Positions 17,162 through 63,835 of a DNA stretch of 64,000 nt are shown here, piece by piece. The stretch's first letter is position 1. Each line of letters opens with the position of its first letter. The stretch is from a virus: positions 19,873 through 83,872 of IMG/VR virus record IMGVR_UViG_3300026311_000001; one strand, written 5' to 3'. Position numbers and translations under genes: made by a program. The notes beneath the pieces were generated by a model, which saw only the letters and a list, made by a program, of their open reading frames with translations, ran no database searches and had not been told where the DNA came from.

Positions 17162-17200
17162 TTTATATGACGGAGCGTAAAACCCACAGGTCTTTGGTCA
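17162..17200 (+). repeat. degenerate left-end remnant of the TAGTTCAC-type TnpB element family
   Basis: ATTTATATGACGGAGCGTAAAACCCA closely matches ATTTATAAAACGGAGCGTAAAACCCA at 63742-63767. Confidence 0.4.
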
Positions 17201-23800: not shown

Positions 23801-24119
23801 TACGGTTCACAGCAGATGTAGGCATTACTCCCTTATGAGTTTTACAGAACATATCTATAAACTCATCCGGCCTCATCCCCGGAAATCCCTCCAAAATACA
23901 TTCCTTTTCAGTTATGCAGAATAATGCCTCAGAACGGGTTGAAACAATCCTTATCTGACAGATTTTCTTTATTTTCTCCCCCTTCTTTAACCCCTGACAC
24001 TTTTCAACTGCATTGACAATCTCTCCTGGTTTTAAAAACCACCATCCGTTACGCCGGGTAACTGTTTTCGTCTTTTCTCTCACCTGATTAGGTGTAATCA
24101 TAAATGACATATTTCTCAT
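23781..24119 (-). CDS. ASCH-domain protein
   Basis: ..[19 protein letters not shown].. and small beta-barrel size. Confidence 0.5.
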
Positions 24120-24140
24120 AGGTTTTATCCCCTCGCCAAA

Positions 24141-24176
24141 GAAGACCCTCTCCTTTAGGGGAGGGATGAATTTGGC
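24141..24176 (-). repeat. end-hairpin module, copy 3 (right end of IscB-type element)
   Basis: GCCAAATTCATCCCTCCCCTAAAGGAGAGGGTCTTC aligns with CCAAGTCAATCACCCTTCCCTAAAGGGGAAGGGCTTG (26095..26060) and with copy 1 at 4366..4331. Confidence 0.5.
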
Positions 24177-24182
24177 TATTTT

Positions 24183-24328
24183 TTAATTCCATATTAAACC
24201 ACCTTGATTATAATATTTTTCTATGTCTTTTGTCTTAAAATATTCTTTAAGTTTTGTTGAACCATAGCAAATATATTTACCATAGCTGAACATTCCTTTA
24301 CAGATATATTTTTTTCCTTTAACCCAAA
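24183..24328 (-). pseudogene. possible IscB C-terminal fragment
   Basis: ..LWVKGKKYICKG..GKYICYGSTKLKEYF..KYYNQGGLIWN*. The ending resembles IscB C-termini as I recall them (..NNGGLQIYV); weak. Confidence 0.25.
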
Positions 24329-24380
24329 GTGAACTACCCACCCACAGCAAAGCTGATGAGTGGGCTTTCGCTCCTAATGT
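24329..24380 (-). mobile_element. 52-nt miniature element (single hairpin + TAGTTCAC end)
   Basis: ACATTAGGAGCGAAAGCCCACTCATCAGCTTTGCTGTGGGTGGGTAGTTCAC, preceded by TTTAC; 50 nt (24337-24386, spanning its hairpin, left end and adjacent TAM flank) identical to 25703-25752. Confidence 0.5.
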
Positions 24381-24444
24381 GTAAAAAGAGCTGGCTCTGT
24401 TTAAGAAGACAACCAGTGACTCCATTAGGTGAAATTGTGGGGCA

Positions 24445-24590
24445 GTGAACTACCCACCCACGCCAAAGGCGATGGGATGGGCTTCATGGGTCAAAGCTCC
24501 TTCTACTGAAGGCAACGTACCATGATTTTTTAGTGTATGTTCCGTACACAAATGATTGTTTAAAGCAAAATTTTTGATATTTATGGAAGC
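24445..24590 (-). ncRNA. omega-RNA (reRNA) scaffold of element 1, extent approximate
   Basis: The 3' end of tnpB plus the right end form hairpins (CCTTCAGTAGAAGG; CCCAUCCCAUCGC/GCGUGGGUGGG with two bulged U). Guide would be TGCCCCACAATTTCACCTAA (24444..24425). Confidence 0.5.
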
Positions 24591-25628
24591 GTTTAAATCC
24601 CGGTCAAGAACAGAACCACACTCAGGACAAGACCATTCACGGTCTTTGAGTGTAAGTTCTTTGTTGATATACCCACAGCCTGAGCATGTTTTCGAGCTGG
24701 GTTCAAACCTTCCAATGCGAAGTATATTAACTCCGCTCCATTTTGCTTTATATTCAAGCATGGTTACAAACATTCCCCAACTGGCATCTGAAATAGAACC
24801 AGCTAAACGATGGTTTTTTACCATACCTTTAATGTTTAAGTCTTCCAAAGCAATAGATTGGTTCTCTCGTATTAACTCCGTGCTAACTTTATGCAGAAAA
24901 TCATTTCTTTGGTTTGCTACTTTTTCATGTAACAAAGCAACTTTATGTTTACGCCTTTTCCCTTTATTTTTTGAATACTGGCGTTGGTTGTATTTTAGTT
25001 TATCCTGTGCTTTACGTAGGTATTTAGGGTTATCATATTCTTCACCATTTGAAGAAACTATATATGATTTGATTCCTAAATCTAACCCTACCGTTGTTTC
25101 TTCTTTTATTGGTTGTGATTGTTTTTCAACCTCGCCTGTTTCACATAGAATAGAAACAAAATATTTACCTGTTGGTGTACGGCTTATTGTAGCCTGTTTA
25201 ATATCTCCTTTTATAGGTCGATGTAGGATAACCTTAATACCTTTTTTAAATTTAGGTATGAATATCCTATCACCATCTAAGCGTACTGATTGCGGTATAT
25301 TAAAAGACTGCTTACCCCTACCTTTTTTCTTAAACTTGGGGAAATCATTTTGCGCTTTAAAAAAGGCTGTATATGCTTTATCTAAATTTGTTATTGACTG
25401 TTGCAAGGATTGGCTATTAACCTCTTTCAACCATTCGTATTCATTTTTTAGATTAGTTAATCTTTTATGTAGCGCAAATAAAGAATGGTTTGTCTTATCT
25501 TTAGCGTATTCAGTCTGCTTAAAAGCCAAAGCGTTATTATACACAAACCTTGCACAACCAATATGCTTATTGATTAACTCAGCTTGCGGGGCTGTTGGTG
25601 ATATTTTGTATTTATACGCTCTTAACAT
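24450..25628 (-). CDS. tnpB: TnpB RuvC nuclease
   Basis: MLRAYKYKISPT.., VGLDLGIKSY, IALEDLNIKGM, CSGCGY..CPECG, DRDLNASINI. Confidence 0.9.
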   Translation of the reverse strand: MLRAYKYKISPTAPQAELINKHIGCARFVYNNALAFKQTEYAKDKTNHSLFALHKRLTNLKNEYEWLKEVNSQSLQQSITNLDKAYTAFFKAQNDFPKFKKKGRGKQSFNIPQSVRLDGDRIFIPKFKKGIKVILHRPIKGDIKQATISRTPTGKYFVSILCETGEVEKQSQPIKEETTVGLDLGIKSYIVSSNGEEYDNPKYLRKAQDKLKYNQRQYSKNKGKRRKHKVALLHEKVANQRNDFLHKVSTELIRENQSIALEDLNIKGMVKNHRLAGSISDASWGMFVTMLEYKAKWSGVNILRIGRFEPSSKTCSGCGYINKELTLKDREWSCPECGSVLDRDLNASINIKNFALNNHLCTEHTLKNHGTLPSVEGALTHEAHPIAFGVGG

Positions 25629-25747
25629 ATTGCAAATATACAAAATTTACAGAAACATACTAATTAATTTAAATAAATTATCTTGTATTGGGTCGCTTTT
25701 ATCCCACCCACAGCAAAGCTGATGAGTGGGCTTTCGCTCCTAATGTG

Positions 25748-25822
25748 TAAAACTTTTGCCTTTCTTGGACTACAAGGCATCAAAGGTTCACCTCTTTGAT
25801 TTAAAACATAAACAGATACACT
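25748..25822 (-). pseudogene. IscB/IsrB-type PLMP-domain N-terminal fragment, no start codon
   Basis: SVSVYVLNQRGEPLMPCSPRKAKVL, cut off by the left end of TnpB element 1. Confidence 0.55.
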
Positions 25823-26100
25823 CGTGTTCTGTTTCCGATTTGACTCGGATTGATCCCCATCGGGATTGTTTAAGAACCGTTTGTCATTTTTCAGACCAAT
25901 CTCAACACTAAGAGTTTCCTCTTTGTTTAATTGAGAATTCACAGAGCAAAGGACTTGGGAAGTATCCCCTGGTGTGTTCTTTAACTTTTTCTTAAACTTC
26001 TGCATAAAACCTCTATTAAAATTTTAAGCTCCCTAATCAACCAATTACCCTTGAAAGTCACCTCTCAAGCCCTTCCCCTTTAGGGAAGGGTGATTGACTT
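25823..26100 (-). ncRNA. HEARO/IscB-omega-RNA-like structured RNA candidate, copy 2
   Basis: Immediately 5' of the PLMP fragment, as expected for IscB omega-RNA; homologous to 4103-4372 with hairpin covariation. Confidence 0.45.
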
Positions 26101-27174
26101 GGCCATTACAAATTTTCCATTTTTTAGCATATAAAACGTATCTGCCTTTATCTTTTTACCATCAACCTTTGCGGTCTTTACCGATTTTAACTCCCATCCA
26201 TAACTATTTTGAACCCATTCTGAAAGCGTTATCCAACAATTTAACGGTGCTTTAGCTTTGTTTTTTATCCCGAATCCTACTGCCATAGAATGATTACTAT
26301 CAATTCCCGTGATAGATGATTCAGATTCATAACCTGTCGTGGTCGATACAGTACCTATACCTGATGCCTGTGAGACTGAACTGTAACCTGATGCCTGTGA
26401 GGCTGAACTGTAACCTGATGCCTGTGAGGCTGACCTGTCACCTGATGCCTGTGAGGCTGACCTGTAACCTGATGCCTGTGAGGCTGAACTGTCACCTGAT
26501 GCCTGTGAGGCTGACCTGTCACCTAATGCCTGTGAGGCTGACCTGTCACCTGATGCCTGTGAGGCTGACCTGCCACCTGATGCCTGTGAGGCTGAACTGT
26601 CACCTGATGCCTGTGAGGCTGACCTGTCACCTGATGCCTGTGAGGCTGACCTGTCACCTGATGCCTGTGAGGCTGACCTGTCACCTGATGCCTGTGAGGC
26701 TGAACTGTCACCTGATGCCTGTGAGACTGAACTGTAACCTGATGCCTGTGAGGCTGAACTGTAACCTGATGCCTGTGAGGCTGACCTGTCACCTGATGCC
26801 TGTGAGGCTGACCTGTCACCTGATGTACTGTTTTCTTTAGTCCATGTAACTTTATCAAATATAAATTTAATTGCACATTCGACTAATGTTTTTATACTTA
26901 TCTCCGTTTCCACGTGTATCTTAGATGAAGCTATTTTTGAATCATCATTTCCTTTGTCAATCTTACCATCTACTTTACAAATGGCAAACCTGTTATTAGC
27001 CGGAGGATAATAATTGAACACATCCAACGGATATTCGCATGAATGAAATCCTTTATTCGTACACTGTACTGGTGTTTCATCCATTTCATAAGTTTTACCA
27101 ATTTCATACTGAAATTCATTCTCATTTGGAGAACATTTTAAATCTTTGGCAAATCCTTTGTACGTAGTTTTCAT
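26080..27174 (-). CDS. repeat protein with 17 tandem nonapeptides SGDRSASQA
   Basis: Start MKTTYKGF (27174) more likely than 27210. Cys/His-containing N-terminal domain, 17 x 9-aa repeats, conserved C-terminal domain. Confidence 0.6.
   Translation of the reverse strand: MKTTYKGFAKDLKCSPNENEFQYEIGKTYEMDETPVQCTNKGFHSCEYPLDVFNYYPPANNRFAICKVDGKIDKGNDDSKIASSKIHVETEISIKTLVECAIKFIFDKVTWTKENSTSGDRSASQASGDRSASQASGYSSASQASGYSSVSQASGDSSASQASGDRSASQASGDRSASQASGDRSASQASGDSSASQASGGRSASQASGDRSASQALGDRSASQASGDSSASQASGYRSASQASGDRSASQASGYSSASQASGYSSVSQASGIGTVSTTTGYESESSITGIDSNHSMAVGFGIKNKAKAPLNCWITLSEWVQNSYGWELKSVKTAKVDGKKIKADTFYMLKNGKFVMAKSITLP
26360..26826. repeat. 27-bp tandem repeat, about 17 copies
   Basis: CCTGATGCCTGTGAGGCTGA(A/C)CTGT(A/C)A units; open in several frames on both strands. 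Confidence 0.9.
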
Positions 27175-27197
27175 AGTGTTATTGATTAAAGTTGTTT

Positions 27198-28489
27198 GTA
27201 AACTACCCACCCACGCAAAGCGATGGGATGGGCTTTAAACCTGACAACGAATGCAAAGAGCAATACATAGTCGATTTTTCAGCAGAATTTACGGTCTGCC
27301 CAAGCAAAGAGATAACTTTAGAAGCGTTATAATCAGCGTCTATGGTATCTACATTGCAGTTTGTGTTTGTGCATTTAAACACTTTGTTTGTTCGTTTGCC
27401 AATATGTTTACATTCACAGCAAGTCTGCGAACTGTAAGCAGGATTGACCACAACAAGTTTAATCCCATTGAGCAAAGCCTTATATTCAAGTTTTACTCTC
27501 AAATCTGCAAAGTTCCATTTATTAAGTTTTGTCCTAAACTTTTTGTTTCTCCGTTTAGAAGTAAACCTGATATTGGTAAGGTCTTCAATGGAAATACCTT
27601 TACCCTGTTCTTTTGCAGATGCTACAATAGATTTACTTATTGTGTGGTTAATCAAATTAGCCGTTGTTCTTTCCTTGCCACTAAGCCGTTTAGACAACTT
27701 CCTGCAATTCCTTTTAGTGGAACGCTTAGAAGTGTCTGCCTTTGCCTGAATAGAACTACGAACTTTTTGCCGATGTTCACGATAAGTATTAAGCCACTCG
27801 GCAGAATGGTTAATACCATCAGAAGTTGCTATAATCGTTGTCAAACCAAAATCACAACCGATAAATTCCTCAATGTCTTTAACATCTTCTTCGGGAACGT
27901 CAACGGTCTGAAACAGGTAAAACTTGCCTTTCTTATAAACCAAATCCGCTTCACCTTTAATGTAAGGCAGGTAGTTTCTATTATGGCAAACAAAGGGAAC
28001 TTTAATCCTGCCACCGATAGCCCAAAGGGAAACAATATCGTTGGATTTGTAAGTCATAATCCTGCTATCATAACCAATGCTTCCAAGCGGTCTAAATTGT
28101 CTTTTGGTTTTCTTATCCAATTTGTAGCTATCAGCAACTTTTGCAATACATCTTACAAGAATTTGACTACTAAGTTTAAAAGTAGCCTTGTATTTATGAT
28201 AAACCTCGTGATGCAATTTAAAATTATTGAAAATACGCTTCTCACAAGCCACATCAGAAATGGCATTGCAAACAGCATTAGCTTCCTTCATCGTGTCGAG
28301 AAGCAAGTTAGCCTGTTCATCGGCAGGCAAAAGCTTTATTTTCAATGTCAACTTCATGGCACAAAGATACGAAATAATTTCACATATAAGAAAAATAATT
28401 ACTAATTTTGTTAAACAATTTAATTATGGAGCGACAATTCCTTCCATCGGCAGCAAAGCTGACCAATGGGTTTCCTTGCCGAAAAGCTT
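27198..28489 (-). mobile_element. TnpB-only IS200/IS605-like element 3
   Basis: Left-end hairpin CCATTGGTCAGC-tttg-CTGCCGATGG preceded by TTCAT; right-end hairpin + TAGTTTAC. In-silico excision restores a clean stop in the flanking ORF. Confidence 0.65.
27203..28357 (-). CDS. tnpB: TnpB RuvC nuclease (divergent from elements 1 and 2)
   Basis: FIGCDFGLTTIIATS, GISIEDLTNI, CCECKH..CTNTNC, DADYNASKVI. Confidence 0.85.
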   Translation of the reverse strand: MKLTLKIKLLPADEQANLLLDTMKEANAVCNAISDVACEKRIFNNFKLHHEVYHKYKATFKLSSQILVRCIAKVADSYKLDKKTKRQFRPLGSIGYDSRIMTYKSNDIVSLWAIGGRIKVPFVCHNRNYLPYIKGEADLVYKKGKFYLFQTVDVPEEDVKDIEEFIGCDFGLTTIIATSDGINHSAEWLNTYREHRQKVRSSIQAKADTSKRSTKRNCRKLSKRLSGKERTTANLINHTISKSIVASAKEQGKGISIEDLTNIRFTSKRRNKKFRTKLNKWNFADLRVKLEYKALLNGIKLVVVNPAYSSQTCCECKHIGKRTNKVFKCTNTNCNVDTIDADYNASKVISLLGQTVNSAEKSTMYCSLHSLSGLKPIPSLCVGG

Positions 28490-28635
28490 ATGAATTTTTT
28501 AATGCTAATAGTTTCTAATATTTCACTCTCCTGTACGGCTATCTTAGATTCTATCCGTTCTATTATCCTCTGATAGGCGGTCTTGCCGTCTAAGCCTAAT
28601 TGATAGGCGTCGGGTTTAGAATGAATCTTCTTCAT
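28420..28635 (-). CDS. small ORF whose 3' part (28420-28489) is IS-derived
   Basis: Reads ..ETISIKKFI then enters the element left end; ancestral end reconstructed as ..KKFINNFNQ*. Confidence 0.4.
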   Translation of the reverse strand: MKKIHSKPDAYQLGLDGKTAYQRIIERIESKIAVQESEILETISIKKFISFSARKPIGQLCCRWKELSLHN

Positions 28636-29455
28636 TGGTTTTATTTTCCGATTCTGTTAAATATGGTATTCCGTATTGATCAATACAAAGCCAATATTCA
28701 TTTATTTCAATATCCCTGAAATCTCTTGGAGTGACAACTGATATATTTTTATTTTCCCTATGTTTACTTATAAGTATTGTTGATTCTGCTAAATTTTGAA
28801 GTTCAGTGCCTAAATGACCTCTTGGCTTTTCCTCATCTCCTTTACGTAATGGATTTATGTGCAATACACAAGCAAAATGGCAATTCTTTCTGTCTGCCAA
28901 TGCTAAAAGTTTATTAAGAAGTTTTATGCACTCTTTAAGATCATTAAAATCATAAATAAACCTATGAAGTGTATCAAGTATTATCAATCCAGGTTCTTCA
29001 GTATTATCAATCACATATTCCAATATCCTTACCCTGTCCTCTGGTGAATATCCTTTAACGGACAATATTTTCAGATTATCAGGGTGTTTATCCAATCCTA
29101 ATTTTCTGCATATCCTATAAGCTATTCTGTTAACATAATACCTTGATTGCTCAGTGTCTATATAAAAATGAGTTTTACCAAAAGTATGACCTCTTAAATG
29201 CTCATCAACTATTCCGTTTTTAATTGCCGCGCTCATAATCAAACTAAGAAGAAATGTTTTACGGCTTTTCTGCTTACCTAAAATTCCTGAAATTCCACCA
29301 TAATTCATAAACAATTTTTCTGTAGCCCCTTCAATTACAGTTATGCAAGGCTCTGGTTTTTGAAATTTATCTCCAAATTGAACGGTAGCCTCTTTAATGA
29401 GTTCAGCTATATCTATTTCCTTTACATTCTCAGGAATGTTAATCTTTAACTGCAT
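28616..29455 (-). CDS. RecA-fold/AAA ATPase (DnaB-C/RepA-like, replication)
   Basis: Walker A GILGKQKSRKTF, Walker B LIILDTL. Confidence 0.55.
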   Translation of the reverse strand: MQLKINIPENVKEIDIAELIKEATVQFGDKFQKPEPCITVIEGATEKLFMNYGGISGILGKQKSRKTFLLSLIMSAAIKNGIVDEHLRGHTFGKTHFYIDTEQSRYYVNRIAYRICRKLGLDKHPDNLKILSVKGYSPEDRVRILEYVIDNTEEPGLIILDTLHRFIYDFNDLKECIKLLNKLLALADRKNCHFACVLHINPLRKGDEEKPRGHLGTELQNLAESTILISKHRENKNISVVTPRDFRDIEINEYWLCIDQYGIPYLTESENKTNEEDSF

Positions 29456-29862
29456 TTTGCAATGTATTCTTTTAATTCATTAATATCATTAGGTTTCCTA
29501 TCGTACTCAAATTCAAACTGCATAATTATGTTTTGGATACGAATAATATTTTCCACAGAGGGCTTTTTAGTAAGCTGTAACCTGTTATCAAATAAAAATT
29601 TTAAAGTCTCGTAATTAACTAGCCTGAAATCACTTTGGCAATAATCGTATATGCCAAGAACTAAAATGTATTTATCAAGCTCTGTGTCTACTTCACCGGG
29701 AAGTATATTGAATTTCCTTGATATAAGTTTATCTATATCATCGGATTGGTTATTAATAACATCTACCAATCCAGACAGTAGCTTAATGGCATAATTCTTC
29801 TGTCTTTCTGATTGAAAGTTATCGAATAATTCTATCAATTTATCTACTTTACTTTGCATCAC
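29446..29862 (-). CDS. hypothetical protein (replication module)
   Basis: 138-aa ORF coupled to its neighbours. Confidence 0.4.
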   Translation of the reverse strand: MMQSKVDKLIELFDNFQSERQKNYAIKLLSGLVDVINNQSDDIDKLISRKFNILPGEVDTELDKYILVLGIYDYCQSDFRLVNYETLKFLFDNRLQLTKKPSVENIIRIQNIIMQFEFEYDRKPNDINELKEYIAKCS

Positions 29863-30559
29863 TTAAAGGATAAAAATCTTTCCAACCACAAGTAATTGCT
29901 TTGTTTATTATTTCAATAGCATCAGAAGGAGTTTTAGCATACTCTTTTAATTTTTTTAATAATCTATCGGAAATACGATCAGAGTTTTGACATTTTAATT
30001 TTGGTCTTAAAGTAAGGTATTCAATAAAGGCTTTGTTAACTTCTGCGTTCTGAGAATAAATTTCCTTTATCTTATATTTTTCTAATCTGTCATTACTACT
30101 ACTTAACTTAGTATCTTCTTCTTTACCTAAACCATTACCTTTACCATTACCATTACCTGTGCCCCTCCGAAGCCCCTCCGAAGCCCCTTTGATAAAGGCG
30201 TCAATATTGGCAATCCCGAACTTCATAGAATATTGTTCAAATCGCCTTACAATTCCTCTATGAGACGGATTTTTTATAGGGTCTAATGGAAGGTTTTTTT
30301 GATGTTTTAAAAAATTATTTATATACAAACAATCACCTGTTATAGAATATGTTAAGCCCCTTTGAAGCCCCTTTAAAGCCCCTTCAATTATAATATTTGT
30401 AGTAACAATATCTGTGGCCCATCTTTTCACATTCAGTTCAATGAATCCACCTATATCACAATTATCACATAAATAGTTAAAAAGCAGTTTTTCCATAGGT
30501 TTTAAATTGGAATACCAACAGTCCGACCATTTATCTGTATTTGTGTATCTGTATGCCAT
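29849..30559 (-). CDS. replisome-organiser/DnaD-like protein candidate
   Basis: N-terminus ..DKWSDCWYSNLKPMEKLLFNYLCDNCDIGGF.. resembles phage replication-initiator N-domains; internal GNGNGKGNG linker. Confidence 0.35.
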   Translation of the reverse strand: MAYRYTNTDKWSDCWYSNLKPMEKLLFNYLCDNCDIGGFIELNVKRWATDIVTTNIIIEGALKGLQRGLTYSITGDCLYINNFLKHQKNLPLDPIKNPSHRGIVRRFEQYSMKFGIANIDAFIKGASEGLRRGTGNGNGKGNGLGKEEDTKLSSSNDRLEKYKIKEIYSQNAEVNKAFIEYLTLRPKLKCQNSDRISDRLLKKLKEYAKTPSDAIEIINKAITCGWKDFYPLSDAK

Positions 30560-30570
30560 TTATGAATTAT

Positions 30571-31764
30571 TTATGCTCCATTTTGTGAACTACCCACCCA
30601 CGCTAAAGCGATGGGATGGGCTTCATGGGTCAAAGCTCCTTCTAACGAAGGCAACGTACCATGATTTTTAAGTGTATGTTCCGTACACAATTTATTTAAT
30701 GCGAAATTTTTAATATTAACGGAAGCGTTAAGATCACGATTAAAAACAGAACCACATTCAGGACAAACCCATTCACGGTCTTTGAGTGTAAGTTCTTTGT
30801 TAATGTATCCGCACGCTGAACATGTTTTAGAGCTTGGTTCAAATCTCCCAATCCTTAGAATGTTTACACCGTTCCATTTTGCTTTATATTCAAGCATAGC
30901 AACAAACATTCCCCATGATACGTCAGAAATTGAACCTGCTAAACAGTGGTTCTTTAACATTCCAGAAATATTTAAGTCTTCCAAAGCAATAGATTGGTTC
31001 TCTCTTATTAACTCTGTACTGACCTTGTGCAAAAAGTCTTTTCTTTGGTTGGCTACTTTCTCATGTAGAATAGCTAACCGATGTTTACGCTTATTTGATT
31101 TGTGTCTTGAAAATTGTCGTTGCTGGTATTTTAAGCGATCTATTGATTTACGTAAGTACTTTGGATTGTCGTATTCTTTGCCATTTGAGGCAACAAGAAA
31201 AGATTTAATTCCTAAATCCACCCCTACTGTTGTTTCTTCATTAACTGGTTTTGATTGTTTTTCTACCTCGCCAGTTTCGCAAAGAATAGATACAAAATAT
31301 TTACCTGTTGGCGTTCTACTTATCGTAGCTTGTTTTATTTCTCCCTTTATCTGCCTATGTAATACAATATCAACACCCTTTTTAAACTTAGGAATAATAA
31401 GTTTGTCGTTATCAATTTTTATACTTTGTGGAATATTGAAAGACTGTTTTCCTCTACCCTTTTTCTTAAATTTAGGGAAATCAGTACGCCCCTTAAAGAA
31501 GTTTTCAAAAGCAGTGTTCATATTAACAATAGATTGTTGCAAAGACTGGCTATTAACTTCTTTTAACCATTCATTTTCTTTTTTTAAATCAGGGAGTCGT
31601 TTAACAAGGCTATACCAAGAATGGTTGGTTTTGTCTTTAGCGTATTCTGATTGTTTAAAAGCCAAAGCATTGTTATACACAAAGCGAGCGCAACCAATAT
31701 GTTTATTGATTAACTCAGCTTGTGGTGCTGTAGGATTCAAACGATATTTAAACGCTTTTAACAT
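30571..31764 (-). CDS. tnpB: TnpB RuvC nuclease (close paralogue of 24450..25628)
   Basis: MLKAFKYRLNPT.., VGVDLGIKSF, IALEDLNISGM, CSACGY..CPECG, NRDLNASVNI. Confidence 0.9.
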   Translation of the reverse strand: MLKAFKYRLNPTAPQAELINKHIGCARFVYNNALAFKQSEYAKDKTNHSWYSLVKRLPDLKKENEWLKEVNSQSLQQSIVNMNTAFENFFKGRTDFPKFKKKGRGKQSFNIPQSIKIDNDKLIIPKFKKGVDIVLHRQIKGEIKQATISRTPTGKYFVSILCETGEVEKQSKPVNEETTVGVDLGIKSFLVASNGKEYDNPKYLRKSIDRLKYQQRQFSRHKSNKRKHRLAILHEKVANQRKDFLHKVSTELIRENQSIALEDLNISGMLKNHCLAGSISDVSWGMFVAMLEYKAKWNGVNILRIGRFEPSSKTCSACGYINKELTLKDREWVCPECGSVFNRDLNASVNIKNFALNKLCTEHTLKNHGTLPSLEGALTHEAHPIALAWVGSSQNGA

Positions 31765-31869
31765 ATTGCAAATATACAATTTTTATATTAATTGTTATCT
31801 TTGTATAAGATTATTAACCATGCCTTACATCCAACCGACTGAAGATCGGTTGGTTTTACGGCATAAATT
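30585..31869 (-). mobile_element. TnpB-only IS200/IS605-like element 2
   Basis: Left end AATTTATGCCGTAAAACCA + hairpin ACCGATC..GTCGGTTGG, preceded by TTTAT (31874..31870); right-end hairpin + TAGTTCAC (30592..30585). Confidence 0.65.
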
Positions 31870-32009
31870 ATAAAATTTCATCGTCCCCAAAAATCCTCCT
31901 GAACATAGACCACAAAAACCTTATCCCTATGTAGAGATACCAAGAAAAGCAAAGGATTATCAAAATAATCCAGACAATTAATAGGATTGAAAGTGCTTGT
32001 ATCATATAC

Positions 32010-32477
32010 TTAATCTTTTGGTAGTCCTAATAATAACCTTATTGCTGTTTTTCTGTACAGACCTATATTGATTTGTTGTCTTTCTTCAAGGATTTCATCA
32101 ACAATTCTATCTATTGGTTGTTTTGATTTTAACGAATCAAACTCATATACTAAAGGCTGAAGTATCTTATATGCTTTTAAACACAGATATTTTAAATACA
32201 CGGATTCTTTATAATAAACCGAGCAATAATTATCAACCTTTTTAATACCTATAAAAACAGAAGCATGACTACCGTAGTTGACACGATTAGCAATGATTTT
32301 TTTAGATAACCGGTTTTGAACATACTTATAAAATATATTTATTGCGGTATATCTTGCTAATGCAATTGGGTTAGTTTCCCTGAGCTGTTGTTTTGAACAG
32401 AAATTATCATTCTGTGAATAAAAATGAAATGTCAATTTCAGGATCTTGTCAAAGGCTAATAAAAATTTTTCTTCCAT
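32010..32477 (-). CDS. DnaA-C-terminal-like HTH protein
   Basis: ..IALARYTAINIFYKYV..LSKKIIANRVNYGSHASVFIGIKKV.. resembles the DnaA domain IV pattern. Confidence 0.35.
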   Translation of the reverse strand: MEEKFLLAFDKILKLTFHFYSQNDNFCSKQQLRETNPIALARYTAINIFYKYVQNRLSKKIIANRVNYGSHASVFIGIKKVDNYCSVYYKESVYLKYLCLKAYKILQPLVYEFDSLKSKQPIDRIVDEILEERQQINIGLYRKTAIRLLLGLPKD

Positions 32478-34347: not shown

Positions 34348-34617
34348 ATGAACCGAATACAAGAAGTATTAATTGAGCAGGGCAGAACGCAGGTATGGCT
34401 GTCCAAACAGCTTAACCGTAGCGATGAAACAATAAGCCGGTATTGCACAAATAAAATACAGCCGGATAATATTTATATGGAAAAAATAGCAAGCCTGCTG
34501 AACGTCCCTGTTGAAGTTCTCATAGTCAAACCATGCCCTGATTGTATGGGTAATATGATCTATAATGTGATAGAAAAACATTGGATATGTTTGAATTGTA
34601 AAAATGTAGTGGAATGA
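34348..34617 (+). CDS. XRE/Cro-type HTH regulator with C-terminal zinc ribbon
   Basis: GRTQVWLSKQLNRSDETISRYCTNK HTH; CPDC..CLNC. Confidence 0.6.
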   Translation: MNRIQEVLIEQGRTQVWLSKQLNRSDETISRYCTNKIQPDNIYMEKIASLLNVPVEVLIVKPCPDCMGNMIYNVIEKHWICLNCKNVVE

Positions 34618-35075
34618 AAAAGACACTAGCAAAGTATTTGAAAAAAGAAATGGTAAGCATAGACCCATTTGCGAACAAATGCAAATTAGCAAAAATTACC
34701 AATGATTTAAACCCTGAATACGATACGGATTACCATTTAGACGCTGTTGATTTTTTAAAGCAGTTTGAGGATAATTCAATTGATTTCGTTTTTTATGACC
34801 CACCATATTCATTAAGGCAGGTAAGCGAATGCTATAAAAATGTTGGAATACCTGTTACAATGGAAACCACGCAAAGCAGTTGGAGAACAAAGCACATAAA
34901 CGAAATTAGTCGAATACTAAAACCAAACGGGATTGTAATGTGCTTTGGGTGGAATAGTTCGGGTGTGGGTAAAAAACGAGGCACTGAATTAATCGAAGTG
35001 TTATTGGTTGCTCACGGTGGTAGCCACAATGATACAATTTGCACCGTAGAACGTAAGCCACCAAAGCTGTTTTAA
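34614..35075 (+). CDS. DNA methyltransferase (N6-A/N4-C class, DPPY)
   Basis: DFVFYDPPYSLRQ catalytic motif; small (153 aa). Confidence 0.6.
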   Translation: MKKTLAKYLKKEMVSIDPFANKCKLAKITNDLNPEYDTDYHLDAVDFLKQFEDNSIDFVFYDPPYSLRQVSECYKNVGIPVTMETTQSSWRTKHINEISRILKPNGIVMCFGWNSSGVGKKRGTELIEVLLVAHGGSHNDTICTVERKPPKLF

Positions 35076-35129
35076 CATTGCTGGTAATGTATCAAGTGTA
35101 TATGACGTAAAAAAAGCTAACACCAAACT

Positions 35130-36074
35130 ATGAACGAAGCACTAAAGGCATTTGAATTTAAAACCGAAGGGGAGGGAATTAATGTACTATCTCTTTTCGA
35201 TGGGATGTCGTGTGGGCAAATTGCATTGCAGAAACTTGGTGTAAAAGTTAAAAACTATTTTGCCTCTGAGATTAAACCACACGCCATAAAAGTAACTCAA
35301 CACAATTTCCCTGATACAATCCAGGTAGGTGATGTTACAAAACTACACGGTGAGTCATTTCCAAAAATAGACTTGCTAATAGGTGGCTCACCTTGTCAGG
35401 ATTTTAGCAGGGGTAATGCAATACGTGATGGATTGAATGGGATTAAATCAGGGCTTTTCTTTGAATACTTACGGCTAAAAGCTGAATTAAATCCTACCTA
35501 TTGGCTACTTGAAAATGTAGTGATGAGTGATGCTGATTATTTCACCATTAGCAACTACATGAAAACCGAACCAGTAAGGATTAATTCGGCTTTGATTTCT
35601 GCTCAATTACGTGACCGCCTTTATTGGACAAACGTAGGTCCGGAATACTTCGACTTATTTGGTAGCCGTAAGTGTGTAATACCACAACCAAAAGATAAAG
35701 GAATACTACTTAAACACATTTTAGAAAGTGGATATACTGATAGAGAAAAAAGCAGAGCATTACTTGAAAGTGATAGCCGACCATTACGGACACTTGAAAA
35801 AATGTGGCATAGATATTCTGATACAGGATTTACAACTGTGGTATTTGAAAGCCCTGATTTAGATTGGCAAAAAGGATTGAGATACTTTACACAAACTGAA
35901 TTAGAAAGACTACAAACTGTACCCGAAGGATACACCTCAATTTTGAAACGTAATGACGCAGCGTGTTTACTTGGTGATGGTTGGACTGTTGATGTTATTG
36001 CTCATATCTTGTCTTTCATGCGCGTGGGGGTTTTAAATTCAAATGCCTTACCCGAACTACAATATGAAACATGA
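35130..36074 (+). CDS. DNA (cytosine-5) methyltransferase
   Basis: LSLFDGMSCG (motif I), GGSPCQDFS (IV), LLENV (VI). Confidence 0.85.
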   Translation: MNEALKAFEFKTEGEGINVLSLFDGMSCGQIALQKLGVKVKNYFASEIKPHAIKVTQHNFPDTIQVGDVTKLHGESFPKIDLLIGGSPCQDFSRGNAIRDGLNGIKSGLFFEYLRLKAELNPTYWLLENVVMSDADYFTISNYMKTEPVRINSALISAQLRDRLYWTNVGPEYFDLFGSRKCVIPQPKDKGILLKHILESGYTDREKSRALLESDSRPLRTLEKMWHRYSDTGFTTVVFESPDLDWQKGLRYFTQTELERLQTVPEGYTSILKRNDAACLLGDGWTVDVIAHILSFMRVGVLNSNALPELQYET

Positions 36075-36090
36075 ACTCAATAGCTTTTTT

Positions 36091-36116
36091 TATGGCATAT
36101 ACACGTTGTTATGTGC
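36091..36116 (+). repeat. attC-like GTT-side half-site
   Basis: 3' arm GGCATATACAC + GTTATGTGC. Possible partner arm GTGTATATGAC at 35096-35106 after TTTTAAC (35070-35076), which would enclose the C5-MTase gene; tentative. Confidence 0.4.
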
Positions 36117-36240
36117 TGTAAACCGTGAGCGTATGGCAAGCCCAACATGTGCGGTGGGAATGGATTTGAAGCATTGCATATACGGCTGGTATATGCTGTG
36201 CGGCCTCCGGCAGGGGTTGGGCTTATTGAGGAGGTTTATT

Positions 36241-36376
36241 GCACATAACGTTGAGTGTAACCGCATGTAGCGGATTAGAAAGTAATAACCTATCAAATTA
36301 TACGAATATGAATAAAGAGCAGAACACTTCGCAAACCACAGAACCCGCTATTGCGGTTGACACTGTGTTAGGCAAC
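36241..36376 (+). repeat. attC-like imperfect palindrome (136 bp)
   Basis: GCACATAAC; arms GTTGAGTGTAACCGCATGTAGCGG / CCGCTATTGCGGTTGACACTGT; GTTAGGCAAC = revcomp of 36569-78. Confidence 0.65.
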
Positions 36377-36565
36377 GTACTTTATTTACCTGAATTGGTA
36401 ATGAGTTGGAAATCTTTAAATGTAGATAATTTTGGTGTTAAACTACCAATTACAACATATCCAGGGATGGGTAAATATTGGATACCTGTATTTGAAAGCA
36501 TTGAAGAATGCAAAAAAGAATATCCTGACAGTAAGGTGATAATTATAAAACAAGGGCAATGGTAG
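36308..36565 (+). CDS. hypothetical cassette protein
   Basis: Start MNKEQ in the palindrome loop; ORF track 36239 start unlikely. Confidence 0.45.
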   Translation: MNKEQNTSQTTEPAIAVDTVLGNVLYLPELVMSWKSLNVDNFGVKLPITTYPGMGKYWIPVFESIEECKKEYPDSKVIIIKQGQW

Positions 36566-36568
36566 TAT

Positions 36569-36625
36569 GTTGCCTAACGGTTAGTATAAACGGTCGTTTT
36601 AATGCCGTTTATACATTGTTGTGTG
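36569..36625 (+). repeat. attC-like imperfect palindrome (57 bp, minimal form)
   Basis: GTTGCCTAAC; arms GGTTAGTATAAACGGTCG / TGCCGTTTATACATT; GTTGTGTG = revcomp of 37118-25. Confidence 0.7.
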
Positions 36626-36732
36626 TCTGTGGGCGGTGATTTAGTACTAAACTTTATTTGAAATACTGAACAAAAAAGAAAAAAGGGAGGGGGAAAACTT
36701 TATAGAGTACCCATTTATATAAATCTGATACA

Positions 36733-37041
36733 ATGAAAGTATTAACAGAAGGTCACAAGTACCAATTAAGCGGTTTTGAGAACGCTGAAAACACTCAAGA
36801 AATCCAATTCATTGAGAAAACGCCAATTGAAGGCACAACCGAATTGAAAACGGTAAATGATGGAACAACTAACGAGGAACTTCTTGAAGTCTTAATTGAC
36901 CGAATGAACTACTTACAAGGAAAATTCCCTTGCCGTGAAAATGCAATTGTAATTACTAAACTTCAAGAATCTTTGATGTGGTTAGAAAAAAGAACGTCTG
37001 ACCGTAAAAAGAGAAATGTAGAAGGTAAACAATTGGCTTAA
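36733..37041 (+). CDS. hypothetical cassette protein
   Basis: 102-aa ORF. Confidence 0.5.
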   Translation: MKVLTEGHKYQLSGFENAENTQEIQFIEKTPIEGTTELKTVNDGTTNEELLEVLIDRMNYLQGKFPCRENAIVITKLQESLMWLEKRTSDRKKRNVEGKQLA

Positions 37042-37117
37042 ATTTTTGTGAGCGTGGGCTTTTTCTTTTTTGATTATTAGCAGAAATGTTGATTTGAAAA
37101 ACGGATTTAGCCCATTG

Positions 37118-37415
37118 CACACAACAAGGCTGGCGGTATGGGTATGTTTGCCCAACGCACCGCACCGGACTTGAATTGAAATACTTAACTTAAAAATACG
37201 AGCGATGGCATATTATTCATTGAATACACAAATAAACAAAGGGAAATACAAAGGGAAAAAAGTAGAGGAACTTATTAAAAGTACCGAAGGGCAAAAATAT
37301 CTTCTTGCCTTACATATTGGAAACTATAATGTGTTTTTAAACCCAGAAGTATTCAGAGCGTTGGCAGATTACACTCGAACAAAGAACGGCAAATTACCTA
37401 TACCGCATGTTAGCG
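37118..37415 (+). repeat. attC-like site, long and weak (298 bp)
   Basis: CACACAAC; arms GGCGGTATGGGTATG / CCTATACCGC; GTTAGCG = revcomp of 37511-17. The 3' arm lies inside ORF 37205..37516. Confidence 0.35.
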
Positions 37416-37516
37416 ATACGGTTTGCGATAATCCGCATTGCGTAGACGGTGTAGTAGCTGAAATATATGGCGAAAAAGTTTACTGCGATAAATGTCAATC
37501 GCAAACTGGACGCTAA
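37205..37516 (+). CDS. hypothetical cassette protein with C-terminal Cys cluster
   Basis: ..CDNPHCVDG..YCDKC; stop TAA inside CGCTAAC. Confidence 0.45.
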   Translation: MAYYSLNTQINKGKYKGKKVEELIKSTEGQKYLLALHIGNYNVFLNPEVFRALADYTRTKNGKLPIPHVSDTVCDNPHCVDGVVAEIYGEKVYCDKCQSQTGR

Positions 37517-37637
37517 CGTTTGACGGTATCAGCAGTATTTGCTTCACTAAATTTAATTTTAAACACAAATGACAAAATTAGCAGAAAATAATCCACAAGG
37601 CACGGCAAATATTGCTGATGACTGTGTGTTAGCCACC
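37511..37637 (+). repeat. attC-like imperfect palindrome (127 bp)
   Basis: CGCTAAC; arms GTTTGACGGTATCAGCAGTATTTGC / GCAAATATTGCTGATGACTGTGT; GTTAGCCACC = revcomp of 37887-96. Confidence 0.65.
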
Positions 37638-37895
37638 GTACTTTTATGTGATTGCGGGTCGGCGGAGCATCAAATAATAATACATAAAGACAAAGATTTT
37701 TCAGAAGGATATAGAGAAGTGATACTTTGTCCACACTTAATCACATACCGTAATATTTTCAAACGGGTATTGGTTGCTTTTAAATACATATTTGGTTATA
37801 AATGCAAATATGGTGCGTGGGATAGTATCATAGTTTCGAAACAAAATTATCTACCATTAAAAGAAGCTGTGGAGTTTCTTGAGTATGGTGGCTAA
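37569..37895 (+). CDS. hypothetical cassette protein
   Basis: Its only Met codon lies inside the preceding palindrome loop; an in-frame GTG sits at the GTT core (37626). Confidence 0.45.
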   Translation: MTKLAENNPQGTANIADDCVLATVLLCDCGSAEHQIIIHKDKDFSEGYREVILCPHLITYRNIFKRVLVAFKYIFGYKCKYGAWDSIIVSKQNYLPLKEAVEFLEYGG

Positions 37896-38022
37896 CGGAC
37901 GAGCGTATGAGTAGTGGCGGATAGAATGCAACTACCTTTCGTAAAGCACAAAGATTGAAAAGAGAACTAAACTTAAATATTAACACAAAAACCGCCATTA
38001 CTTATACGCATTGTTAGCGGTA
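37887..38022 (+). repeat. attC-like imperfect palindrome (136 bp)
   Basis: GGTGGCTAAC (stop TAA inside); arms GGACGAGCGTATGAGTAGTGGCGG / CCGCCATTACTTATACGCATT; GTTAGCGGTA = revcomp of 38596-605. Confidence 0.7.
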
Positions 38023-38049
38023 TGTATGGGCGGATTAGAAGTACAAAAG

Positions 38050-38604
38050 ATGAAAAAATACGAAATAATTTACGCAGATCCAGCTTGGCAATATAAGACC
38101 AAAGAAAGCCTTGCAAAAACAAGTATTTTGAATGGGGAGCTTAACACCCATTATGGAACGATGACTATTGCTGAGTTGGGTGGGTTGCCGTTGGGGAGCA
38201 TTTCAGATAAAAACTCTATGCTGTTTATGTGGGTGGTTAGCCCGATGCTTGATGATGGAATTGAACTTATGAAAAAATGGGGCTTTAAATATAGCACAAT
38301 AGCTTTTATTTGGCACAAACAAAGGGCTAACCCTGGACATTATACTATGAGCGAATGTGAAATATGTTTAGTTGGAAGGCGGGGTAAAATACCAACTCCA
38401 AGAGGGGCAAGAAATGTTCGTCAGTTTTTATCTGAAATGCGTGGAAAACACTCTGCTAAACCAACTGAAATAAGAAATAGAATTGAACTTATGTTTCCAA
38501 CACAAACAAAATTAGAAATGTTTGCAAGGCAGAGTGCGAAGGGTTGGGATGCGTGGGGAAACGAGGTTGAAAATAGCATTGACCTTAGCCCATATTACCG
38601 CTAA
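38050..38604 (+). CDS. MT-A70-family N6-adenine DNA methyltransferase
   Basis: MKKYEIIYADPAWQY (DPPW-type motif), ..HSAKPTE.. Confidence 0.8.
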   Translation: MKKYEIIYADPAWQYKTKESLAKTSILNGELNTHYGTMTIAELGGLPLGSISDKNSMLFMWVVSPMLDDGIELMKKWGFKYSTIAFIWHKQRANPGHYTMSECEICLVGRRGKIPTPRGARNVRQFLSEMRGKHSAKPTEIRNRIELMFPTQTKLEMFARQSAKGWDAWGNEVENSIDLSPYYR

Positions 38605-38697
38605 CGGCTTGTGGTATGAAATCGAAACCGACACCACCACAGCCTGAACAATGCGACTAAGCAACCAGAGGTTTTGTTTTATACCACTTGTTAGCCA
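38596..38697 (+). repeat. attC-like imperfect palindrome (102 bp)
   Basis: TACCGCTAAC (stop inside); arms GGCTTGTGGTATGAAATCGAAACC / GGTTTTGTTTTATACCACTT; GTTAGCCA = revcomp of 39141-48. Confidence 0.7.
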
Positions 38698-38739
38698 TCT
38701 GGTGCGGTCAATTAGTAATAAACTTAATTTGAAAACGAA

Positions 38740-39147
38740 ATGGAAGCAAAAAATTTTAGAATTGGAAATTTACTTACAAGCAAAGGATGGGGAAATGTTG
38801 GGGCAATTGAAGGGATTGAAATTACACAAGATGGTTTTGAATTGAAAGTAAAAGGGTATGTGCATCCTTGGGAAAAAGACAAATATTTTGATTTAGCCCC
38901 AATTGAATTAGATGAAGAATGGCTTACAAAATTTGGATTTATTGAAGAAACTCCAAACGAGTTTATACTACGGAAACATCCGATAATTTTTAACATTCAT
39001 AGAAATTTAGTCACTGGTGAGTTTATGTCCAGAATGAACCCGAATTATTCAATATTAGTTAAATCTGTTCATCAATTGCAGAATTTATTTTTTGCGCTTA
39101 CAAAAGATGAACTTGAATTGAAAACGGAATGTAGCACTTGTGGCTAA
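38740..39147 (+). CDS. hypothetical cassette protein
   Basis: 135-aa ORF, stop inside TGGCTAAC. Confidence 0.5.
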   Translation: MEAKNFRIGNLLTSKGWGNVGAIEGIEITQDGFELKVKGYVHPWEKDKYFDLAPIELDEEWLTKFGFIEETPNEFILRKHPIIFNIHRNLVTGEFMSRMNPNYSILVKSVHQLQNLFFALTKDELELKTECSTCG

Positions 39148-39235
39148 CGGTCGGGTATTGGCGATGCCCGCACTTAGAAACTTTAAATTATAAACAAGCT
39201 GTCCAGCGGGTATTGCCAATACCTTGTTAGCAGCA
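39141..39235 (+). repeat. attC-like imperfect palindrome (95 bp)
   Basis: TGGCTAAC (stop inside); arms GGTCGGGTATTGGCGATGCCCGC / GCGGGTATTGCCAATACCTT; GTTAGCAGCA = revcomp of 39446-55. Confidence 0.7.
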
Positions 39236-39252
39236 GTAACGGATTAAAAAAA

Positions 39253-39441
39253 ATGGAACAGTCAAAACAAGAAAAAGAAATTTATGAGTTAGCAGAACTT
39301 TTGATGCAGTCTGAAAACTTAGAAGCAAGTGCAACTATCCTTCGTGATTTTGCTGAAAAGTGTTATCAAGAAGGGGCGGTTGATGCTCAAAAAGATGCAG
39401 CGGAAGAAATACGTGAACACTATGTCGAAGGTGGTCGGTAG
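39253..39441 (+). CDS. hypothetical small acidic cassette protein
   Basis: 62-aa ORF. Confidence 0.4.
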   Translation: MEQSKQEKEIYELAELLMQSENLEASATILRDFAEKCYQEGAVDAQKDAAEEIREHYVEGGR

Positions 39442-39445
39442 TTAT

Positions 39446-39581
39446 TGCTGCTAACGGTTGATTATATGAAACGGTGGGGATTTAAAGCCTTACATTTTCG
39501 CATCGTAATAAACTAACAACAAGGCAGGTGGGCTAAAAAGACGTATGACACCCCACTGTTTTATATAATGTGTTGTGCGCA
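39446..39581 (+). repeat. attC-like imperfect palindrome (136 bp)
   Basis: TGCTGCTAAC; arms GGTTGATTATATGAAACGGTGGGG / CCCCACTGTTTTATATAATGT. GTTGTGCGCA differs from its own AAC side but equals revcomp of 39794-803. Confidence 0.7.
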
Positions 39582-39589
39582 GTACGGTT

Positions 39590-39790: not shown

Positions 39791-39793
39791 TAT

Positions 39794-39891: not shown

Positions 39892-39923
39892 TCTGGTGCG
39901 GATTTTAAAAACAAAACTTTAAT

Positions 39924-40757: not shown

Positions 40758-40763
40758 CACTTG

Positions 40764-62543: not shown

Positions 62544-62597
62544 CGCTAAGTTAATTCGTGAGAACCAAATCGCCTCTGGCGTGGGTGGGTAGTTCAC
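62544..62597 (+). mobile_element. miniature/solo right end of TAGTTCAC-type TnpB element
   Basis: ..GAGAACCAAATCGCCTCTGGCGTGGGTGGGTAGTTCAC in the 60-nt gap between two genes. Confidence 0.5.
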
Positions 62598-63096: not shown

Positions 63097-63780
63097 ATGA
63101 TTCAGCGAAAGAAAAAAATATGTAAAGATTGCAAAACGGAACAATACCTTTTCAGTCATGGCCGTTGCAAAAAATGTTTTCAATCATGGTGTTATTCTAC
63201 ACCTGAAGGACAGGAATATCTTAACCGTGTATGTTTAAAAGCAAAAAATAAAGTCAGGATAGAGGGGAAGAAAGAAACTCAGGAAAAAAAAGTTGAATTG
63301 ATGTCTTGCGATGAATACCGTAAAAAATATGTTCAGCCGATTTTTAATGAAATAGCCAGATTGATTGATTACGGCCAACCTTGTATAGCAACCGGAAAGT
63401 TCGGAGGTAAGTTAAATGGAGGTCATTTTCATTCTGTTGGATCGAATAGAACCTTAGCCTTTCATCTCCATAATATTCATCTACAGTCAGAACATTCAAA
63501 CAGTTATAAAGGAGGCGATAACAATAGATACCGGGAAGGGTTAGTAAGGGAATACGGGCAAAAGTATGCTGATTATGTGGATTCATTAAAATCAATTCAA
63601 CCTATTAAACTCAGTAAATCAGATTTAATTGAGATTAAAAATATAGCTACAGTGATAAAGAATGAATTGAAAAATAATCCTGTAGTAATGACGGCACAGG
63701 AGAGAATAGAAATCCGGGATGAAATAAACAAAAGAATAGGGATTTATAAAACGGAGCGTAAAACCCAGTCATCGCTTTAG
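63097..63780 (+). CDS. NinG/Rap-like recombination endonuclease candidate; last ~11 codons supplied by the mini-element
   Basis: N-terminal CKDC..CKKC zinc cluster, GGHFHSVG..R..H..N..QSEHSN pattern. Confidence 0.4.
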   Translation: MIQRKKKICKDCKTEQYLFSHGRCKKCFQSWCYSTPEGQEYLNRVCLKAKNKVRIEGKKETQEKKVELMSCDEYRKKYVQPIFNEIARLIDYGQPCIATGKFGGKLNGGHFHSVGSNRTLAFHLHNIHLQSEHSNSYKGGDNNRYREGLVREYGQKYADYVDSLKSIQPIKLSKSDLIEIKNIATVIKNELKNNPVVMTAQERIEIRDEINKRIGIYKTERKTQSSL

Positions 63781-63835
63781 CGTGGATGCCGTGAAACCCG
63801 AAGCCCATTTGTCTTTAGCAAATGGGTAGTTCACA
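63748..63835 (+). mobile_element. 88-nt miniature element (two hairpins, no ORF) of the TAGTTCAC family
   Basis: TTTAT|AAAACGGAGCGTAAAACCCAGTCATCGCTTTAGCGTGGATG..CCCATTTGTCTTTAGCAAATGGGTAGTTCAC|; interrupts the right copy of the 171-bp repeat. Confidence 0.6.

Follow-up and report, generated by a model that had tools for sequence, protein, structure and literature searches.

The window analyzed in this work is a stretch of 64,000 nucleotides (nt) of phage DNA from IMG/VR virus record IMGVR_UViG_3300026311_000001. Its 24.1-32.1 kb region carries, on the minus strand, three compact elements, here termed E1, E2, and E3, each of which encodes a TnpB protein. An initial reading of the letters alone (hereafter the first-pass annotation) had proposed that the window holds five tnpB genes, and profile searches bear out all five of the corresponding open reading frames (ORFs) through matches to the Pfam families OrfB_IS605, Cas12f1-like_TNB, and HTH_OrfB_IS605; these lie at 24450-25643, 27203-28357, and 30571-31779, belonging to E1, E2, and E3, respectively, and at 2978-4102 and 44635-45834, all on the minus strand.

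The three elements are built alike and comprise a left end bearing a subterminal hairpin, a promoter, an intact tnpB gene, and a right end. E1 (24445..25746, minus strand, 1302 nt) lies directly after the motif TTTAC (25751-25747), within the remnant of an IscB gene, and its tnpB runs from an ATG at 25628 to a TAG at 24450, encoding 392 amino acids (aa). E2 (27198..28489, minus strand, 1292 nt) follows TTCAT (28494-28490) and carries a divergent tnpB (27203-28357, minus strand, 384 aa, with a Pfam TNB domain) and a right end whose tip reads TAGTTTAC. E3 (30585..31869, minus strand, 1285 nt) follows TTTAT (31874-31870); its tnpB begins with an ATG at 31764, and the reading frame crosses the right end to stop at 30571, also on the minus strand. 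All three left flanks are thus found exactly where they had been placed by the first-pass annotation, as is the terminal structure that it had described as common to the three tnpB ends: a hairpin, CCCA(T)CCCA(T)CGC-loop-GCGTGGGTGGG, followed by TAGTTCAC in E1 and E3 or by TAGTTTAC in E2. The right-end hairpin and the 8-nt tip overlap the tnpB stop, and in both E1 and E2 the stop codon is the TAG within GGGTAGTTCAC. E1 and E2 translate the 5' arm of the hairpin in different reading frames, which indicates that conservation operates at the level of the nucleic acid and not of the protein. The 17-mer GTGGGTGGGTAGTTYAC is present in five copies in the window, as opposed to 0.07 expected from shuffled sequences; three of these mark the tnpB ends (24445-24461, 27198-27214, and 30585-30601), and the other two belong to a 52-nt mini element and to an orphan right-end fragment, both described below. 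Imperfect subterminal hairpins occur at both ends, with left-end hairpins being recognizable in E1-E3 and in approximately 43 relatives; here and below, counts of loci for right ends, left ends, minis, and the RNA alignment refer to the IMG/VR matches listed.

The boundaries of such elements can be verified where closely related genomes lack them, and the first-pass annotation had staked its proposal on this comparison. Among phage contigs that are 99.4-100% identical to the window (related contigs and loci compared with it carry L-numbers, such as L196 or L242), empty sites bear out the boundaries and the target-adjacent motifs (TAMs) of E2 and E3 to the nucleotide. At the E3 site, L196/L210, L208/L215, L209/L216, and L221 display TTTAT joined directly to AAAATGGAGC (GATGAAATTTTAT followed by AAAATGGAGCATAAAT), with a size difference of 1285 nt, while at the E2 site L208/L215, L209/L216, and L213 display TTCAT joined to AAACAACTTT (AAAAAATTCAT followed by AAACAACTTTAATC), with a size difference of 1292 nt. 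Neither insertion left a target-site duplication or a scar, the empty allele consisting simply of the TAM and the right flank, and it is this absence of duplication that allows the proposed E2 and E3 boundaries and TAMs to hold. The reverse situation is also encountered: near 34155, where the window provides the empty allele, a TTTAT in L196 is followed by an E3-like insertion (88.6% identical) that is oppositely oriented. In L197, a TTCAT overlapping the E3 site precedes an E2-class left end located on the opposite strand. Presence and absence at exact TAM junctions is thereby seen at four or more sites, in genomes that, when occupied and empty versions are compared, differ by only 0.1-0.6%. 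Some samples contain both alleles, among them JGI 3300037067, 3300019239, and 3300009542, as well as SRR21487925.

The target rule can be extended well beyond this phage. When IMG/VR was scanned with the pattern CCCATCGC-N3-5-GCGTGGGTGGGTAGTTYAC of the right end, at least 117 contigs matched, and in 102 unique loci unrelated flanks begin immediately after ...TAGTTYAC, which fixes the right boundary of the family. Approximately 43 independent insertions with located left ends, which fall into few classes but each have an independent flank, reveal that insertion occurs immediately 3' of a 5-nt motif, and that this motif covaries with the four bases that lie 5' of the foot of the left-end hairpin. 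The bases AAAA are associated with TTTAT (17 of 18 cases), AAAG with TTTAC (8 of 9), and GAAA with TTCAT (11 of 13); the two GAAA exceptions (L012 and L104), as well as L124, are better read as AAAT paired with TTTAA. The sequence that follows the right end of L012 is the same as that which precedes the left end of L104, and this shared flank suggests tandem copies, or possibly the circle junction, of a TTTAA-class element. An analogous rule applies to the right end, where GAAG accompanies the tip TCAC in 72 loci and AAAG accompanies TTAC in 22. E1 (AAAG/TTTAC), E2 (GAAA/TTCAT), and E3 (AAAA/TTTAT) all obey the left-end rule, and in each of them the TAM differs from the element's own right-end tip at position 3 and/or position 5, so that an occupied site should not itself be a target.

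The proteins encoded by these elements belong to two distinct lineages. E1 and E3 TnpB are 80.6% identical to each other, and the product of the gene at 27203, which had been singled out as a very different protein, indeed displays only ~25% identity to either. The RuvC D-E-D residues and the zinc-finger cysteines are kept in all three, and the zinc-ribbon (TNB) domain is recognized by Pfam. In ISDra2, whose TAM is TTGAT, the omega-RNA overlaps the 3' end of tnpB and the right end, and the guide is derived from the 3' flank. E1 TnpB matches the ISDra2 protein (PDB 8H1J) with an E-value of 3e-67; the E1 and E3 proteins align with ISDra2 TnpB (PDB 8H1J, 8EXA) over 368 residues, with D/E/D conserved, whereas E2 TnpB represents another clade whose closest relatives of solved structure are Cas12f-like proteins, with which its own D/E/D residues align. 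Identity between the E-element TnpBs and their homologs from phages of Firmicutes is only ~45%.

By analogy with ISDra2, the last ~120 nt of each element would provide the omega-RNA scaffold. For E1 this predicted scaffold spans 24445..24565 (minus strand), with a predicted guide in the 3' flank at 24444-24425 (TGCCCCACAATTTCACCTAA); for E3 it spans 30585..30705 (minus strand), with a predicted guide at 30584-30565 (AAAATGGAGCATAAATAATT), and is covered by the same alignment and covariation analysis as E1. The predicted E2 region (27198..27320, minus strand; predicted guide 27197-27178, AAACAACTTTAATCAATAAC) represents another scaffold class in the part that precedes the shared terminal hairpin, its upstream sequence being common to 18 non-redundant E2-class right ends. 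An Rfam search returned no family matching the predicted TnpB omega-RNAs, HEARO being the only match, and covariation was therefore evaluated on an alignment built for this purpose, which comprises the last ~118 nt of 31 non-redundant E1/E3-class right ends. Two variable stem-loops upstream display many double-sided, compensatory changes, and the terminal hairpin is invariant; over the three helices of the E1/E3 class the covariation score is 0.349, as compared with 0.109 +/- 0.011 for shuffled alignments (0/500 as high) and at most 0.069 for slid partners, which supports the notion that the E1/E3-class 3' segment is a structured RNA. The predicted guides match only their own flanks, and the TAM of E3 and the sequence of its predicted guide are intact in the empty alleles.

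None of the three elements carries a transposase gene, but relatives with the same ends do, which identifies E1-E3 as non-autonomous members of the family. In autonomous relatives, a gene for a divergent Y1 TnpA of 133-136 aa, with the HUH motif HIHFL and a C-terminal RQYI, lies between the left end and tnpB; it is found in six full-element loci (L054, L084, L092, L093, L098, and L117), with several more complete or partial copies, and the TnpA family has 976 homologs at E<=1e-10. The search of cellular genomes for a cognate TnpA and for matching ends, which the first-pass annotation had recommended, located both in the complete genome of Arachidicoccus soli (Chitinophagaceae; CP032489), in an element that begins with TTTAT followed by ATGATGGAGCGTAAAACCC, carries divergent tnpA and tnpB genes, and terminates with GAAGCCCACTCATCGCTTTGCGTGAATGGGTAGTTCAC. 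The exact right-end pattern was met in only 69 stretches among 185,579 species genomes, all of them from metagenome-assembled genomes, mostly of Bacteroidota, and none from isolates; set against the IMG/VR contigs, this suggests that the sub-lineage with the exact pattern circulates mainly in phages.

E1-E3 are thus very probably non-autonomous IS200/IS605 elements that are mobilized in trans and have adopted the tnpB-only layout sometimes called IS1341-like. A number of observations weigh against this interpretation, the most direct of which concern the transposase. The window contains no Y1 TnpA detectable by tblastn with six TnpAs of the family (best E 0.03; this match, at 28602-28438, spans the E2 left end and a small phage ORF and was treated as chance), and no Y1_Tnp was returned either by a Pfam scan of ~60 of the 82 predicted ORFs or by the stored Pfam matches for identical genes of 13.8-24 kb and 52-64 kb in relatives. 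The earlier statement that no transposase is present stands for the window, and for intact genes, but fails for the remaining ~19 kb of the phage genome, which was read in a relative that is 100% identical to the window over the overlaps compared: here, a TnpA remnant (L242, 20133-20432, minus strand) preserves residues 1-100 of 136, which are 80% identical to the family TnpA and still include the HUH motif, but has lost the region of the catalytic Tyr. An intron that would interrupt this gene was ruled out, as none was recognized by Rfam and no C-terminal coding sequence is left in any frame. The phage once carried an autonomous copy and does so no longer, and in the absence of an intact TnpA, mobility at present must come from elsewhere or else be older than the decay. 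Regarding E1, no clean empty site was found among the related contigs, and its boundary and TAM are predicted from the family-wide rule, to which unrelated viral contigs contributed the independent insertions. In L204/L205, the IscB N-terminus is joined directly to the 52-nt mini, with E1 and 75 nt being absent, but this allele is a deletion, as expected from recombination between two identical left-end repeats, since E1 and the mini share an exact repeat of 50 nt. In addition, the near-identity of right-end hairpins among loci is in part the result of an exact-pattern search, and variant right-end hairpins do exist in A. soli and in two minis. Lastly, empty alleles in which the TAM and target are intact persist in the population at both the E2 and the E3 sites, which implies that any homing drive is not overwhelming.

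The decayed TnpA, which still shares 80% identity with the family over its first 100 aa, evokes the question of whether E1-E3 could be inert relics, once moved by the phage's own enzyme, whose polymorphism merely represents old insertions sorted by recombination among lineages. Such an origin, which we consider rather unlikely, would fit the fact that E2 and E3 are either both present or both missing in the contigs seen, as well as the abundant debris (two minis, an orphan right end, and a solo left-end fragment); it is harder to reconcile with the small divergence between occupied and empty genomes, with the further private insertions of L196 and L197, and with the ends and TnpB genes of E1-E3 themselves, in which no decay was seen. 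The lack of an intact transposase in the phage could also be understood if the tnpB genes had been domesticated, as immobile RNA-guided regulators similar to TldR or as weapons against the host or rival phages, the hairpin then being only an RNA scaffold or terminator. All three elements are oriented like the neighboring genes, and TnpB genes are common in phages (429 GenBank phage records); nevertheless, both ends have remained intact and conform to the guide/cleavage-site rule of TnpA, insertions are present or absent at exact TAM junctions in nearly identical genomes, the RuvC D/E/D residues are kept, unlike those of TldR, and the guides match no sequence other than their own flanks, all of which makes domestication quite improbable. 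The window does hold a fragment of a Resolvase domain (4352-4651), and if E1-E3 were of the IS607 family they could have been moved by the serine recombinase that it represents; this fragment, however, belongs to a separate element, that of the tnpB at 2978-4102, whose homologs directly follow full IS607-type recombinases, while the hairpin ends and TAM rules of E1-E3 are characteristic of Y1 transposition and a Y1 TnpA is encoded by their autonomous relatives, leaving this last option with practically no weight.

If E1-E3 are indeed mobilized in trans, their cycle can be outlined by analogy with IS608 and the ISGst elements. A TnpA supplied by the host (Chitinophagaceae carry the family), by a co-infecting phage, or by the formerly intact phage copy would excise the top strand and insert it as single-stranded DNA. 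The last ~120 nt and the 3' flank would be transcribed as an omega-RNA, with which TnpB would cut sites composed of the TAM and the flank, that is, empty alleles, and recombinational repair after the cut would restore or spread the element. For a phage-borne element, co-infecting genomes without a copy would be the natural targets, and TnpB homing between co-infecting phages is plausible in light of work on related elements (PMC10055086).

A second empty allele of the E2 site, found in L196/L210, L197, and L212, is of interest in this context. It reads TTCGTG in place of TTCATA (TTCGTGAAC as compared with TTCATAAAC), and thus differs by two transitions, one at TAM position 4 and one at target position +1, the first base matched by the guide, with a conservative change of Ile to Val; these are the sole pair within 3 nt among 16 single-nucleotide polymorphisms in 4873 nt. 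The allele could represent an escape from TnpB cutting or the ancestral state. More speculatively, and with rather low confidence, the TnpB/omega-RNA pairs may operate as a phage-against-phage gene drive, in which the empty alleles of near-identical rivals are cut during co-infection (‘non-restorative homing’ or marker exclusion), and TTCGTG would be an escape variant. Inter-phage TnpB homing has already been listed as a possibility in a 2026 review (PMC13565253), and no field evidence for it was found in the papers searched. The mechanism considered here is textbook IS200/IS605 biology, and leaves existing knowledge unchanged; the practical yield lies in three intact pairs of TnpB and predicted omega-RNA from a Bacteroidota phage, with borders, TAMs, and guides that natural empty sites confirm in the case of E2 and E3 and that the family rule predicts in the case of E1. 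Near-identical genomes with and without the elements, one of which has an empty allele with a mutated TAM, provide a test bed for inter-phage TnpB homing.

The window also contains non-coding derivatives of the family, with both ends and no protein gene, that resemble palindrome-associated transposable elements (PATEs) or miniature inverted-repeat transposable elements (MITEs). The 52-nt mini (24329..24380, minus strand) lies after TTTAC (24385-24381) and consists of an E1-type left end that continues through the hairpin to the tip TAGTTCAC. An 87-nt mini (63748..63834, plus strand) lies after TTTAT (63743-63747) and displays a variant right-end hairpin (CCCATTTGTC..GCAAATGGG TAGTTCAC). The 166 nt that follow its tip (63835-64000) are 100% identical, in inverted orientation, to 44378-44543, and the identity begins exactly at the tip of the mini on one side and exactly after TTTAT on the other, so that the copy at 44.5 kb constitutes a perfect TAM-plus-target for the would-be guide of this mini. 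Among the 91 right ends of the family for which sufficient upstream sequence is available, 32 have no full tnpB; several tnpB-less minis retain the left end, a Bacteroidetes-type promoter, and exactly the ~118-nt 3' segment, whose retention fits an omega-RNA that may be usable in trans. In a relative, a protein-less element of ~290 nt is present at about L242 17020-17310.

Other fragments are less complete and, like the two minis and the two HEARO genes of the window, had not been picked up in the first-pass annotation. The orphan right end (62569..62597, plus strand) comprises the 3' half of the hairpin and TAGTTCAC; within 62543-62601 both of its flanks include short stretches that resemble the interior of tnpB (gttaat.cg.gagaaccaa ... 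tgctttggaa), which suggests a nested insertion that was probably later mostly deleted, and the fragment is fixed in seven related contigs. In L240, the same right flank is joined, by way of a mini formed from a left end and a right-end tip, to the start of an epimerase gene (window ~23.8 kb), which implies either that the DNA was rearranged or that the assembly is chimeric across elements. A solo left-end fragment, TTTAT followed by ATGACGGAGCGTAAAACCCACAGGTC and a truncated hairpin, occupies an intergenic gap at ~17165-17200 (plus strand).

E1 itself interrupts the remnant of an IscB gene at TTTAC, in a region that covers 25664-26098 (minus strand) and 24183-24425. The IscB N-terminus, which corresponds to the first ~25 codons and includes the PLMP motif, is located at ~25747-25830 (minus strand) and yields a weak RRXRR match, and the associated HEARO, the IscB omega-RNA, is found at 25848..26098 (minus strand; Rfam RF02033, 103.7 bits against a gathering score of 83). 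Past E1, 75 nt, and the 52-nt mini, an IscB-like C-terminal tail is open in frame once the mini is removed (24183-24425); the entire catalytic core of the interrupted gene has been lost. A further gene, for a DUF7666 protein (26080-27210, minus strand), includes a long run of 27-nt repeats (SGDRSASQA units), whose copy number varies by contig (376, 373, 274, and 269 aa) and at which assemblies break.

The IS607-type element at 2978-4651 (minus strand) combines a serine recombinase that is truncated at its N-terminus (99 aa) with a gene for a divergent TnpB-like protein of 374 aa. The truncation had been called in the first-pass annotation and is evident from the ORF at 4352-4651 (minus strand), which matches only positions 42-140 of the 145 in the Resolvase profile. 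A full-length HEARO (117 bits, 4140-4371) lies exactly between the two genes; a new pairing of the TnpB at 2978-4102 with an IscB-type RNA was considered and rejected, because seven homologous loci have no HEARO, three of them instead carrying an IS607 serine recombinase directly upstream of tnpB. The segment at 4140-4371 is therefore a solo HEARO lodged in the spacer between tnpA and tnpB. The fifth tnpB (44635-45834, minus strand) encodes a protein of 399 aa that is 47% identical to those of E1/E3, has different ends and no TnpA, and interrupts a run of plus-strand genes at a point where the GC skew dips.

The carrier of E1-E3 is a Bacteroidota phage of roughly 83 kb, whose host probably belongs to the Chitinophagaceae. 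Exact-protein look-ups reveal the same phage in many metagenomes, including a 64-kb contig and a contig of 83,393 bp, which seems circularly permuted with respect to the window and indicates that the latter is without ~19 kb of the phage genome. Profile searches identify a lysozyme, an SU10-type adaptor, five DNA methyltransferases, and a tail-fibre-like lectin/lyase protein, to which NinG and a 2182-aa LPD38 protein were added from the stored annotation of identical genes in a relative. The structural proteins bear a distant resemblance to their counterparts in Cellulophaga and Flavobacterium podophages, and no tRNA genes were found in the window. Methyltransferase genes are unusually dense at 34614-44367, where two C-5 cytosine, two N6/N4, and one MT-A70 enzymes are encoded, in addition to a Methyltransf_11 ORF. 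Other routes to relatives were unproductive: a near-identity DNA search of GenBank phages with 24100-32100 gave no match, an IMG/VR protein search with the AAA_25 neighbor yielded relatives that were only ~30% identical and thus useless for empty sites, and a metagenome scan with a 236-aa neighbor protein gave no relative. Beyond the window end, the early-gene region of L242 includes a match to a type-P3 twister ribozyme (16288-16358, minus strand; 48 bits against a gathering score of 39.9).

The closest points of reference for E1-E3 are found within the IS200/IS605 family. IS608 from Helicobacter pylori, its prototype, has imperfect subterminal hairpins with an extrahelical T and inserts 3' of TTAC without duplication, its cleavage sites being read by the four bases 5' of the hairpin foot. 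Hairpin ends, duplication-free insertion, and the four-base guide logic are all shared by the E-family, and the AAAG/TTAC pair of the E1 left end and the E2 right end is the left-end pair of IS608. IS608, however, is autonomous, with both tnpA and tnpB, whereas E1-E3 have no tnpA; moreover, the E-family motif has five bases, and the end sequences differ.

Another close parallel is provided by ISGst1-5 of Geobacillus stearothermophilus, members of the IS605 group whose TAMs were verified experimentally (Meers et al. 2023, PMC10055086). In that system a single TnpA serves many tnpA-less elements with different nucleases, and the tnpA-less, non-autonomous state is the commonest in the IS200/IS605 family (PMC10055086). 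The ISGst TAMs TTTAT (TnpB2) and TTCAT and the transposon-encoded motif (TEM) TTCAC belong to the same vocabulary as those of the E-family; in both systems, positions 3 and 5 distinguish TAM from TEM, the two motifs vary in concert with the DNA guide bases beside the hairpins, and protein-less, PATE-like minis occur. The ISGst elements reside in Firmicutes, whereas the E-family is found in a Bacteroidota phage and in Chitinophagaceae, and has in addition the TAM TTTAC and the right-end tip TTTAC. Features that typify TldR-like proteins (an inactive RuvC, lost ends, and a fixed position) or IS607 (an adjacent serine recombinase and ends without hairpins) are not found in E1-E3, which display instead the hairpins, the duplication-free 3' insertion (in E2, E3, and the L196 copy), and the DNA-guide covariation of IS200/IS605 elements, while having no Y1 TnpA of their own.

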